From positions 1-53,007 of the forward strand of contig JBBQRQ010000026.1 in assembly GCA_038214755.1 (NCBI GenBank): DNA of 53,007 bases, given 5' to 3'. This document shows positions 6,001-9,000 of this stretch, piece by piece. This DNA comes from Verrucomicrobiota bacterium. Lineage in GTDB: Bacteria > Verrucomicrobiota > Verrucomicrobiia > Limisphaerales > CANJXF01. Position numbers: made by a program. Position 1 is the first letter of the stretch, and every line of letters starts with the position of its first letter.

Positions 6001-9000
6001 TTTTCGTCGGCAAAAAATTTGAACGTGGCGAGCAGACAGCAAACAAGAAGAGAATTTCCCAAAATTTTTCTCATGCATTGAATCCCTGAACCGTAGCCGC
6101 CGGCGTGAGGAGGTGGACTGGGGCGAGGCACGCGGAATTCCGCCTCCTCACGTCGGCGGCTACAAGCGGGTTCAACGAGCGCGAAGTGGGAGAGAATTTT
6201 TTTTGCCATGTCAAAAATCCTAAACAGAAATCTTTTTGACATCAACGCCTGCCACGGCAAATTTCAGTTCGCCGCGTGGGAAGGATGGCTGAGTGGTTTA
6301 AAGCTGCAGTTTACTAAACTGCCGAGGCGCTTGCGTCTCCGGGGGTTCGAATCCCTCTCCTTCCGCCATCCATTTGCCGTTCTCCCAAATTTTCCGACGA
6401 ATGGATTCAGTATGGAGGGATACTCCACGGCCTCCTCGCGCCGTGGAGCAATGGGAAGATTACTTCCGATTTTTGCGTGACGATTCAAGACGGTCCCAGG
6501 CGTCGCGGGTGGCCTGTTTGGCCTTGTCCCATTCGAGTCCCATCGTGCCACGGTGCTTGGAATAGTCATTTTGCAAATCCCGCTCGACTTCCGCGTAGCT
6601 TTTTCCGCTGTAGCGACCGTATCCCTCGTAGCCAGTGCGATAGGCGGGGGCGTAACTGTCGTAAGCGTCTCCGCTCTTCGCGTAAGGGCGATTGCGATAG
6701 TTCTCGCGCCAGTAGGCGTCTTCGACGGTCGGATCAATTTTTTCGGCAATCCCTTTTCCGGCCAGTCCTCCTACAACCGCTCCTACCGCTGCGCCGATGG
6801 CGGTTCCCACCGGTCCCGCTACGGTGCCAATGGCTGCCCCGGCCGCCAGTCCGCCCGTTGCGGCGCCGACACCAGTGCCAACGGGGTGAGCGCCTGGTTC
6901 ACCGGTAATTGGATCGCGGTTGGCGTCTTGTCCTTTTCGATTATCGTCTTTCATATAGGTATATTTAGTTACTGCGATTTATGGTTTCTGTGAGCACTGA
7001 TTGAATCAAATGAAGAGATGACGACAAACGGGGCGATGCCTGATTCGCACAACGGAATAATCCCACGAATCAAGATAGGGGCGAGCATCTTTCTTTAATC
7101 TTATGCCCCGACCAAATTATCCGGTAGCCAACAAGCCTGCTCCTGCGATGATTGGTTCATGAATGCATGGGAAAAATCAGACTGGTTTGTAAAGTGGTTG
7201 GAGATGGCAAGGAAAAGAGCGGGGCGATAGTTCGCAAGATCGCAGGCTAAAAAGACGGCGCGTTTCGCGCCGTTTGTTTTTTCAGCAAGGAGATTTTTTT
7301 CCCGCCAAAATTTAGCATCATGACTATTAAAAAATCAAAGCCCTTTAAACAATCGCTCGGGCGATTGGGAATTCTGCTTTTGCCCTCACTGAAAATGAAA
7401 GGTGTTTCGCCTCGCGGAAAAACTTACGAGACAGAGGTGCATGAATTTCTCGTCGCCAATTTTAGCGGCTACACTTTGGCTTCAGGAAATATCGCCGGCT
7501 TTTGGAAAGACTCCCGGGGCAAGCAACATTATGGCGAACATCTGGAATATCGGGTGGGCGTCTTGTCCGAAAAAAAAATTCCGATGCTGGAAAATTATAT
7601 TTCGCAATTGGCGGAAGAGATCGGGGAAGAATCTATTTTTTGGGAAACAGGAGAAGATGCCTGGCTCATTTATTCCAGAGGATTCAAGAAAAGAAGGCCG
7701 TAATATTTGACGGGTAGCATCTGCCTCCGGCGGGTGCGGCAAGGTAGATTGAATTGTTGGATTGTTGGATTGAGTGCTGCAGGTTCTAAGTTTTAAGCAT
7801 CGAAAATCCAACTTCCACCGATCCAATAATCCACCAATCCATCCATCCATAAATCCAACCCACCTTGCCGCACCCGCCGGAGGCAGATGCTACCCTGATG
7901 AATCTTGGGAATTTATGGTGGAGTCGATTAACGCGCGAGCGTCGGTGAATTGGCTTTCGGGAACTTGCACGCGAATTCCACCGGAGGTTATAGACGAACC
8001 CAGATCGAGAGTGGAAAGCTCGTTCAGAATCGTCGGCTCAAATCCGGCGGCTTCCAGTTGCGCCGCGATCAAATTTGCTTCGGCGGAATTGAACGTTTTA
8101 AAAACAGTGGCGAAGTCCATGAGGCAGACTGCGTCGCGCTCAATTTTAAATCAAGCGGCAAGCGGCGCTTTCAATTCGGCGAACACAATAATTCCCGCGC
8201 CAGTTTGCAACAAACTTTGCACCTGCACGTTGACTTGTTGTCCGATCAAATTTTGCGCCTGGTTGACGACGACCATCGTGCCGTCGTTGAGGTAGCCTAC
8301 GCCCTGCCCCTTGTCTTTTCCTTCGCGCACGATGCGCAGAGCAAACGCTTCCCCCGGCAAGATCACCGGCTTCAACAGGCTGGCGAGTTCGTTCAAGTTG
8401 ACGTAGGGCACCGATTGAAGTTCGGCCACTTTTCCAAGATTGAAATCGTTGGTGTATAATTTCGCGTTCAAGGCTTTGGCCAGTTTCACCAGCTTGCCGT
8501 CCACTTCCTTCTCTTCGGGAAAATCGCCTTCGTGAATTTTTACTTCGATGCGCGTGTTTTGCTGGATGCGTGAAAGAACTTCCAACCCGCGCCGCCCGCG
8601 CACCCGTCGAATCGGGTCGTTGGAATCAGCCACGTATTGCAACTCGCGCAAAACAAATCGCGGCACGATGATGAGTCCCTCGACAAAATTGGATTCGATC
8701 AAATCGGCGATGCGCCCATCGATGATGACGCTGGTGTCGAGGAGAATTAAATTTTCCGGTTTATTCTGCGACGCGAATCGGACGTAGGGAATGATGAGGG
8801 AAAAATCTTCTTTGTTACTGCGCATCGCCAGAATCATTCCGATGTAGCCGAAGCTCAGAAAAAGGCCGAGCCGTATGAGCCAGCGCGTATTTTCCGGAGC
8901 GAAGGCGAACAACTCCGAGTGATCGATCAGCAGCGCGATTAAAAAACCCAGGCCCAATCCAAAGGTCGCTGCCGAGAAAGCGCGGAGCGAAAAACCTTTG

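Follow-up and report, generated by a model that had tools for sequence, protein, structure and literature searches.

Bacteria are generally held to avoid adenosine at the first anticodon position (A34) except in tRNA-Arg(ACG), where it is converted to inosine (I34). For the split codon box of serine and arginine, a review calls A34 "universally missing" (PMC8007984), and surveys cited in another study found encoded A34 to be almost always turned into inosine (PMC11066159). According to PMC11472039, bacterial TadA is strictly sequence-specific for the anticodon loop of tRNA-Arg(ACG), and the editing of tRNA-Leu(AAG) by TadA of S. pyogenes illustrates that this substrate range can widen. The anticodon ACU has a precedent in an artificial tRNA with a Tyr-charged, archaeal class I body from M. 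jannaschii that competes with the host tRNAs of E. coli. Of 15 engineered A34 tRNAs in this host, inosine was detected only in those with ACG, AUG and AAG, while the ACU tRNA carried none and reassigned AGU at 9.4% and AGG at 0.36%, with AGC and AGA below detection (PMC11066159). Translation with a genomically encoded A34 that escapes modification has a natural precedent in tRNA-Thr(AGU) of Mycoplasma (Andachi 1987 and Inagaki 1995, as cited in PMC11066159), but this tRNA serves a four-codon box, of which it reads ACU, ACC and ACG, and where reading past U is harmless.

The gene described here lies at positions 6279..6368 of the forward strand of the window, by which we mean the whole stretch of 53,007 nucleotides that was analyzed. 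ARAGORN calls a tRNA-Ser(act) with a full cloverleaf at 6279-6368 (+), and Rfam model RF00005 covers the gene with all of its positions (1-71 of 71) at 54.5 bits (E 4.8e-9, gathering score 29). Direct reading of the sequence gives a 90-nt class II tRNA with the acceptor GGAAGGA/TCCTTCC, G73, an encoded CCA end and a long variable arm formed by a 6-bp stem and a 4-nt loop. The anticodon A34 C35 U36 (6313-6315) is part of the loop U32 U33 A34 C35 U36 A37 A38. Length, class, CCA end and anticodon are as the first-pass annotation had described them; its loop string UUUACUA is one base off, taking in U31 and omitting A38. Together with the covariation in 14 orthologues presented below, these data confirm a real and conserved class II serine tRNA gene.

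The same genome encodes a normal tRNA-Ser(GCU) (contig C121, 8857-8946, reverse strand) that serves the same codon box and has the same class II Ser body, G73 and CCA. It differs by G34 (loop UU-GCU-AA versus UU-ACU-AA) and in the anticodon stem and variable arm, and it is universal, whereas the ACU form is rare and accessory. Whole-genome ARAGORN further lists Ser cga, gga and tga as well as Arg acg, ccg, cct, tcg and tct, in line with the earlier statement that tRNA-Ser(GCU), tRNA-Arg(UCU) and tRNA-Arg(CCU) are all present. ARAGORN also reported one "tRNA-Cys(aca)" and four "tRNA-Cys(gca)", but the former and two of the latter represent a dispersed repeat and not tRNAs, so that the genome has no second split-box A34 tRNA. 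All five Ser tRNAs of the genome carry G73 and CCA, and the acceptor of tRNA-Ser(ACU) begins with GGA like those of the four others. Its T-arm (GGGGG/CCCTC) is identical to those of the genome's Ser(GGA) and Ser(UGA), and its D-arm resembles that of Ser(GGA). The gene thus specifies a genuine tRNA-Ser body, as supported by the D-arm, the T-arm, G73 and the long variable arm that it has in common with the four other Ser tRNAs.

A pattern search in 401 genomes of the order recovered the gene in 14, this one included, from 5 families (reversed control: 0), and all 14 matches are full 90-nt tRNA-Ser(act) genes. Our pattern differed from the one used previously, and the conservation across the order that had been claimed is upheld, with 5 families in this sample compared to "at least 6" stated for another one. 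Because the ACU anticodon was fixed in the pattern, its constancy among the copies found in this way is not independent evidence. In the stems of these 14 sequences (7 distinct), 182 of 182 cells pair and 6 pairs have changed on both sides, which none of 500 shuffles reaches (slid controls gave at most one such pair); the variable-arm stem has compensatory changes in 4 of its 6 pairs. All 14 copies are thus intact genes with compensatory stem changes, as befits an encoded A34 that selection has kept in a functional tRNA gene. All 14 carriers also keep tRNA-Ser(GCU). As an independent check on the anticodon, 13 close relatives without the gene were found to have no tRNA that combines this anticodon stem and T-arm with a different anticodon. 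Within the genus, 7 of 9 genomes hold the gene, with completeness values of 62% and 76% for the remaining two. The gene is dispensable, as it is absent from five genomes of family f35 whose completeness is 93% or more. Presence is polymorphic within a family and within a genus, and the chromosomal sites differ between families; the gene for tRNA-Ser(ACU) is accessory rather than core.

Synteny of the gene is kept within the genus and extends to family f5, and the same holds for a promoter-like element at 6236..6264 (+) composed of TTGACA (6236-6241), a 17-nt spacer and AAATTT (6259-6264) that ends 14 nt upstream of the tRNA 5' end. The motif TTGAC(A/T)-17 nt-(A/G)A(T/A)TTT stands at equal distance in all 7 carriers that belong to the genus as well as in two genomes of family f5, G088 and G004. 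A scan for the sigma-70 consensus did not report the element, and its putative promoter status is read solely from conservation because the -10 hexamer AAATTT poorly matches TATAAT. On the other side, 86 nt past the tRNA 3' end, the consensus scan found a weak candidate for a terminator at 6454..6477 (+), the hairpin GGAAG ATTA CTTCC followed by a T-rich run; the 3 terminator-like sites in 5900-6800 compare to 1.7 ± 1.3 in shuffles, which on its own is not significant. The synteny and promoter motif kept within the genus, together with the compensatory changes, argue that the gene has been maintained by selection over that span. The neighbors of the tRNA gene are housekeeping genes that differ from family to family. 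Here, the divergent neighbor at 5340-6209 (-) encodes a generic class I SAM methyltransferase of no specific family; as a dedicated partner of tRNA-Ser(ACU) it was rejected, since its synteny is limited to the genus and G088. No RNA sequencing runs were listed for positions 4500-8500 of the window.

Elsewhere in the phylum, none of 250 genomes carries the gene. The same kind of tRNA is encoded by at least 105 further species genomes, most of them from Patescibacteria and some from Planctomycetota; among Patescibacteria it is rare, with 3 carriers in 121 sampled genomes. It also occurs in at least 116 viral contigs, corresponding to 116 of the 120 IMG/VR loci among the matches listed; the nearest viral copy among these matches is 88% identical and has the same first 26 nt. 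A cultured representative is Salmonella phage 7t3, whose gene at 329274-329364 of MK773491.1 (annotated as "tRNA-Ser" only) encodes a class II Ser-type tRNA with anticodon ACU that is 75% identical to the one in the window. However, it has C32 and A73 and, being phage-borne, serves phage codon usage in infection and is not a chromosomal gene of genus age. Compensatory variation is seen in the anticodon stem over 119 genome copies; the constancy of ACU in them carries no weight, as it too was set by the search pattern. In Patescibacteria, the gene often lies 100-250 nt from that of Ser(GCU) (within 3 kb at 39 of 119 loci), which looks like an isoacceptor pair, and a tRNA-Arg(GCG) is nearby at six carrier loci of the Patescibacteria type. 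A search for the origin of our gene by identity outside the anticodon stem-loop named no donor: the values are 77% for the genome's own Ser(GGA), 73% for its Ser(GCU) and 73-75% for the ACU tRNAs of Planctomycetota and Patescibacteria. The tRNA thus belongs to a rare and patchy family that also occurs in Patescibacteria, Planctomycetota and many phages and is not special to this order.

Bacterial SerRS recognizes the long variable arm, G73 and the acceptor stem of its substrates and not the anticodon. The genome has one SerRS gene, on contig C41, and our preferred reading, to which we assign a probability of about 0.65, is that this single seryl-tRNA synthetase would put serine on tRNA-Ser(ACU), that A34 would be left unmodified, and that AGU would be read by Watson-Crick A:U pairing, with AGC, AGA and AGG decoded little or never. 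The tRNA would then share the work with tRNA-Ser(GCU), a reader of AGC that can also decode AGU by wobble, so that AGU and AGC would each have a perfectly matching tRNA. Since serine and arginine split the box, the reading must be restricted here, unlike that of Mycoplasma tRNA-Thr(AGU). In 3,253 long open reading frames we counted 10,972 AGT, 20,571 AGC, 4,571 AGA and 3,287 AGG codons, a cruder count than the one of the first-pass annotation (AGU 11,504 and AGC 21,940) and close to it. AGU makes up 35% of the AGY codons and is not the preferred one, and single tRNA genes of this genome carry much larger loads (around 61,000 codons for Asn and 66,000 for Asp); the demand for AGU decoding is therefore no obvious reason for keeping the gene.

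The genome encodes a bona fide TadA on contig C29 at 8892-9353 (NF008113, 176 bits versus a cut-off of 150) and uses about 4,600 AGA codons, so that I34 would miscode. With tRNA-Arg(ACG) and the I34 tRNA-Leu(AAG) of some Firmicutes, tRNA-Ser(ACU) has in common that A34 is encoded in a TadA-bearing bacterium, and with the former also C35; those two have G36 and are deaminated (PMC11472039), whereas ours has U36 along with U32 and A37. Its loop (UU-ACU-AA) differs from that of the genome's own tRNA-Arg(ACG) (CU-ACG-GA) at positions 32, 36 and 37 and lacks the G36 of the ANG anticodons that mark TadA substrates. An enzyme that is suited to the tRNA-Arg(ACG) loop and needs G36 would probably leave this A34 alone. 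Among 14 carriers of the Patescibacteria type, none has a TadA that reaches the model cut-off, which is strict (only 6 of 14 control genomes pass); 9 of the 14, some of which are single-contig genomes of about 1.2 Mb, have no match at E ≤ 0.001, and in view of this strictness the 5 with weak matches are not taken as TadA-free. In the carriers without any match, the family would have to work with plain A34. The dilemma posed by the first-pass annotation, i.e., that the tRNA must either keep a plain A34 and read AGU or miscode AGA, is well put, and the behavior of the ACU tRNA in E. coli, the carriers without a TadA match and the use of AGA favor the former.

Several other explanations deserve to be weighed against decoding of AGU by plain A34. 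If TadA of this genome did convert A34 to inosine, the tRNA would read AGU, AGC and weakly AGA and thereby place serine at some arginine codons. For this speak the presence of the enzyme, the match of A34 and C35 to its substrate, the wider range of TadA in some Firmicutes (PMC11472039) and the surveys in which encoded A34 nearly always becomes inosine (PMC11066159). We nevertheless consider it quite improbable given U36 and the dissimilar positions 32 and 37, the more so as even the widened substrate Leu(AAG) retains G36 (PMC11472039) and E. coli edited ANG anticodons only and not ACU (PMC11066159), an observation made in an archaeal body with C32 unlike the tRNA studied here. Furthermore, the same family occurs in 9 genomes without a TadA match, AGA with its 4,571 codons and its own tRNA-Arg(UCU) shows no sign of avoidance, and beside Ser(GCU) an I34 tRNA would contribute AGA misreading alone. 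A broader form of this idea, in which TadA-bearing hosts alter A34 enzymatically, either fully or conditionally, so that the tRNA reads beyond AGU and AGA (or AGG) becomes a regulated ambiguous Ser/Arg codon, seems a long shot; the alteration could be inosine made by TadA or by a small TadA-like paralogue, or an undescribed modification. The genome has two such small deaminase paralogues, one on contig C55 and one on C35. The former (18802-19269) was rejected as a dedicated A34 modifier because its distribution does not follow that of the tRNA: no copy was found in the carriers G023, G154 and G018, and the non-carriers G111, G161, G264, G010, G014, G015 and G025 have one.

The tRNA might also decode AGU with little benefit to its host, either as a transient gene obtained from or shared with phages or as a spare reader of AGY codons in case tRNA-Ser(GCU) is attacked, e.g., by an anticodon nuclease. 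The patchy and polymorphic distribution, from 5 families in 401 genomes to 3 of 121 Patescibacteria and 0 of 250 genomes elsewhere in the phylum, fits this view, as do the abundance in viral contigs, the similarity of the nearest viral copy, the family-specific chromosomal sites and the finding that AGU is not the preferred codon. We regard it as unlikely, since presence in 7 of 9 genomes of the genus, synteny, promoter motif and compensatory changes speak for maintenance by selection, and there is no integrase or phage gene within 1.5 kb at 6 carrier loci or near the gene in the window. Nor did an anticodon nuclease specific for tRNA-Ser(GCU) come to light, although no search aimed at one was made. 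Some bacteria keep special tRNAs for aminoacyl transfer, and an odd anticodon in an accessory gene would suit a dedicated seryl donor or regulatory tRNA (e.g., for cell-wall or natural-product synthesis) that does not decode on the ribosome and whose anticodon would be irrelevant. Yet the T-stem consists of the same pairs as in two of the genome's ordinary Ser decoders, the loop has the features of a normal decoder (U33, A37 after U36, and A38), the anticodon stem varies by compensatory changes over the 119 genome copies, no aminoacyl-transferase-like gene adjoins the tRNA among its family-dependent housekeeping neighbors, and the frequent proximity to Ser(GCU) in Patescibacteria is that of an isoacceptor pair; such a role is very improbable. 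Hardly credible, finally, is a dead or mutant Ser tRNA copy or a sequencing or assembly error at position 34, even though a single G-to-A change would turn a GCU gene into an ACU gene. The same A is found in 14 independent assemblies, every stem cell pairs with double changes in 6 pairs, and 27% of the positions in the body deviate from the GCU gene. This identity of 73%, both overall and outside the anticodon stem-loop, and the compensatory substitutions across the 14 genomes bear out the earlier claim that the gene is no recent mutant of tRNA-Ser(GCU).

The literature that we searched yielded no description of a natural tRNA-Ser(ACU). Its conservation contradicts accounts in which A34 never occurs in the box divided between Ser and Arg, all the more so since this genome encodes TadA as well and reads AGA as arginine. 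That phages and scattered bacterial lineages both carry the family suggests an exchange of single tRNA genes among them. As a natural system, tRNA-Ser(ACU) makes it possible to ask why bacteria avoid A34, how TadA separates substrates from non-substrates and how an A34 anticodon escapes misreading in a split box. If AGU and AGC indeed have separate, perfectly matching tRNAs in nature, this would also be relevant to code engineering by the splitting of codon boxes.

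The window holds two tRNAs by ARAGORN, one of which is tRNA-Ser(ACU) (called as tRNA-Ser(act)) at positions 6279 to 6368 on the plus strand, where the Rfam tRNA model is covered entirely with 54.5 bits (E 4.8e-9; gathering score 29). Its cloverleaf comprises an acceptor stem of 7 bp (GGAAGGA/TCCTTCC), a D-arm with a 3-bp stem and Ser-type loop, an anticodon arm with a 5-bp stem, a variable arm of 6 bp, the T-arm GGGGG-TTCGAAT-CCCTC, and discriminator G73 followed by an encoded CCA. We therefore agree with the first-pass annotation on a class II tRNA with long variable arm and CCA end; its anticodon ACU also stands, but the loop given there as UUUACUA was offset by one base, as sequence and cloverleaf place U32 U33 A34 C35 U36 A37 A38 (UUACUAA) in the loop. 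The gene product belongs to the tRNA family and is, judged by its sequence features, a bacterial tRNA-Ser.

Across the whole source genome (5.1 Mb in 175 contigs, 97% complete, 52.7% G+C), ARAGORN makes 51 calls, including tRNA-Ser with anticodons ACU, GCU, CGA, GGA, and UGA and tRNA-Arg with ACG, CCG, CCU, UCG, and UCU. This bears out the earlier claims of an ordinary tRNA-Ser(GCU) beside the ACU gene (contig C121, 8857 to 8946, minus strand) and of tRNA-Arg(UCU) and tRNA-Arg(CCU). tRNA-Ser(ACU) is 73% identical to this Ser(GCU); it has the same T-arm as Ser(GGA) and Ser(UGA) and a D-arm similar to the one in Ser(GGA). When the anticodon stem-loop is excluded, its identity is 77% with Ser(GGA) and 73% with Ser(GCU), and no donor could be named. 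One "tRNA-Cys(aca)" and two of four "tRNA-Cys(gca)" calls were rejected as poor cloverleaves and copies of a dispersed repeat, which leaves tRNA-Ser(ACU) as the sole A34 tRNA of the genome apart from tRNA-Arg(ACG). The repeat, with these three copies miscalled, is about 100 nt long and resembles a REP or MITE element; it consists of three short hairpins, whose cores read GGTT-loop-AACC, and its GCTACG end is conserved. It has at least 31 copies across the genome (e.g., on contigs C1, C3, C10, C11, C51, and C79), including one at about 31550 to 31660 of the window (minus strand), and matches no Rfam family at gathering score within the window.

Within the order, a search for GTTTACTAAAC, a gap of 18 to 32 nt, and GGTTCRAATCC found the gene in 14 of 401 genomes including the source, and the reversed control pattern matched none of the 401; since all our patterns fix parts of the anticodon loop and T-loop, such counts are floors, and presence counts are further affected by the frequent lack of tRNAs in MAGs. 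Each of the 14 matches is a complete tRNA-Ser(act) gene of 90 nt that includes the CCA, and all 14 carriers also have Ser(GCU). They fall into five families: f1, where seven of nine genomes of the source's own genus carry the gene (the other two are 62% and 76% complete), f5 (2 of 3), f19 (2 of 3), f24 (1 of 1), and f35 (2 of 10). When the 14 copies (7 distinct rows) are aligned, 182 of 182 stem cells pair, and six pairs (7-66, 29-41, and four in the variable arm) have changed on both sides, a number reached by 0 of 500 shuffles, with at most one such pair in slid controls; the proposal that anticodon-stem and variable-arm pairs vary on both sides among relatives is thus upheld. Among 13 close relatives without the gene (five of them at least 93% complete), none has a tRNA with matching anticodon stem and T-arm under a different anticodon, so the gene is either there or missing as a whole unit, even inside one genus (g119, with the gene in genome G199 and not in G264). 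One non-carrier genome, G289, is flagged as unpublished, and none of the claims rests on it.

A divergently transcribed methyltransferase gene adjoins the tRNA in the source's genus and in G088 (family f5), and the upstream motif TTGAC(A/T)-17 nt-(A/G)A(T/A)TTT is conserved in the genus, G088, and G004. Other housekeeping genes flank the tRNA in families f19, f24, and f35, where neither an integrase nor a phage gene lies closer than 1.5 kb. In G197 (locus L006) and G231 (locus L009), two species of the genus, an AT-rich long inverted repeat of GTTCGATGTT-like units directly follows the tRNA, in the 110 nt downstream of its 3' end; it is absent from the source genome and may represent a terminator or else a small inserted element.

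With a looser pattern, the tRNA was found in none of 250 genomes from other orders of the phylum, all at least 85% complete. A scan for TTTACTAAA, a gap of 18 to 33 nt, and GGTTCRAATCC across 185,579 species genomes gave at least 120 loci, at least 105 of which ARAGORN calls tRNA-Ser(act) (105 of 120 among the matches listed). Titles shown among these matches are mostly Patescibacteria-group MAGs, besides Planctomycetota (L022, L036, L060, and L090), same-order Verrucomicrobiota (L021, genome G023; L089, genome G154), and one MAG each under the labels Flavobacteriales and Acidiferrales. The gene is rare where it occurs, with 3 of 121 sampled genomes in Patescibacteria (query genome G401 counted). 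With the 14 order loci added to those among the matches listed, 39 of 119 loci have a Ser(GCU) gene no more than 3 kb away, often at 100 to 250 nt, and a genome-wide search found a class II GCU tRNA in 11 of 16 additional carriers. Our full-text searches turned up no account of a natural tRNA-Ser(ACU), which a published survey or supplement may nevertheless list, and the bacterial sample behind the published statement of A34 absence included no Patescibacteria, Planctomycetota, or Verrucomicrobiota.

In IMG/VR, the wide-scan pattern detects at least 116 loci with tRNA-Ser(act) (116 of 120 among the matches listed, the nearest being 88% identical to the window gene and alike over the first 26 nt). 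GenBank phage records contain the gene without comment, and Salmonella phage 7t3 is a cultured example (MK773491.1, 329274 to 329364; annotated "tRNA-Ser", ARAGORN anticodon act). Its anticodon loop begins with C32 where our patterns fix U32, so that the family is undercounted. The "hypothetical protein" 7t3_0562 (L281, 67 to 177) lies entirely over this tRNA on the same strand and is probably a spurious gene call. Separately, Pseudomonas phage inbricus (MG018928.1, 68163 to 68253; L283, 54 to 144) encodes a 91-nt class II tRNA with anticodon UCU that has a Ser-type D-arm, G73, and CCA yet is annotated as tRNA-Arg, and the match recurs in Achromobacter phage Axy13 (MK962632.1, 14268 to 14351); if SerRS charges such tRNAs, serine would be placed at arginine AGA/AGG codons.

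Bacterial SerRS recognizes the long variable arm, G73, and the acceptor stem, and these features of tRNA-Ser(ACU) are common to the four ordinary Ser tRNAs of the source genome, so the tRNA body suggests charging with serine. The genome has one SerRS gene (C41, 11911 to 12243); about 2 kb away, the SerRS N-terminal domain is matched once more, over a short stretch (14094 to 14222, minus strand; model positions 1 to 42) with an internal TAA, possibly what is left of a SerRS 5' end that was duplicated.

The source genome has a bona fide TadA gene (NF008113, 176 bits; cut-off 150). Two other genes (C55, 18802 to 19269; C35, 34468 to 34875) encode small TadA-like deaminases of about 150 to 156 aa and score 78 and 63 bits on this model; over 38 genomes, the occurrence of the former does not follow that of the ACU tRNA. 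Compared with tRNA-Arg(ACG), the TadA substrate of this genome, tRNA-Ser(ACU) has a different loop at positions 32, 36, and 37, and because G36 is absent it does not qualify by sequence as a TadA substrate. No carrier of the Patescibacteria type, of 14 searched, reaches the TadA cut-off, and nine have no match at E<=0.001; the cut-off is strict (6 of 14 control genomes pass), and the five carriers with weak matches are not counted as TadA-free. To our knowledge, bacteria normally lack tRNA-Arg(GCG) and use ACG with TadA instead. Six of these loci (L029, L042, L054, L057, L073, and L092) have tRNA-Arg(GCG), whose anticodon makes TadA unnecessary, within 3 kb of tRNA-Ser(ACU), and TadA has no match in five of the six genomes (G418 has a weak match in a 383-aa frame). 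Judged by this gene content, the family clearly seems to work with plain A34 in TadA-lacking hosts.

The rival reading that A34 becomes inosine, with miscoding of AGA, can draw on the TadA of the source genome. There, inosine would put serine at about 4,600 AGA codons already served by tRNA-Arg(UCU), and the modified form would contribute nothing beyond Ser(GCU). In an E. coli study, 15 engineered A34 tRNAs sharing one body showed inosine only with ACG, AUG, and AAG and not with ACU, which reassigned AGU at 9.4%, AGG at 0.36%, and AGC and AGA below detection (PMC11066159); bacterial TadA is likewise described as strictly sequence-specific (PMC11472039). Loop differences, E. coli data, TadA-less carriers, and the cost of miscoding together point to an unmodified A34, which would read AGU by Watson-Crick pairing alongside Ser(GCU). 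On these four lines, we put the probability that tRNA-Ser(ACU) is an AGU-specific Watson-Crick decoder beside Ser(GCU) at about 0.65. Its predicted decoding is like that of the engineered ACU tRNA (PMC11066159) and like that of Mycoplasma tRNA-Thr(AGU) with unmodified A34; unlike the latter, it belongs to a split box, which demands restricted reading.

What the host gains is not explained by this decoding, since AGU is the minority AGY codon (35%; AGT 10,972, AGC 20,571, AGA 4,571, and AGG 3,287 in 3,253 long ORFs, with AGA ordinarily used), other single tRNA genes carry much bigger codon loads, and complete relatives do without the gene. Besides inosine with AGA miscoding, the rival readings are a phage-derived spare, a non-ribosomal seryl donor, and a dead copy, each rated much less likely than the AGU decoder. 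Patchy distribution, differing chromosomal sites, and abundance in phages fit a horizontally moving gene. A purely transient passenger is made less likely by the source's genus, which retains tRNA-Ser(ACU) at a single locus and with compensatory substitutions.
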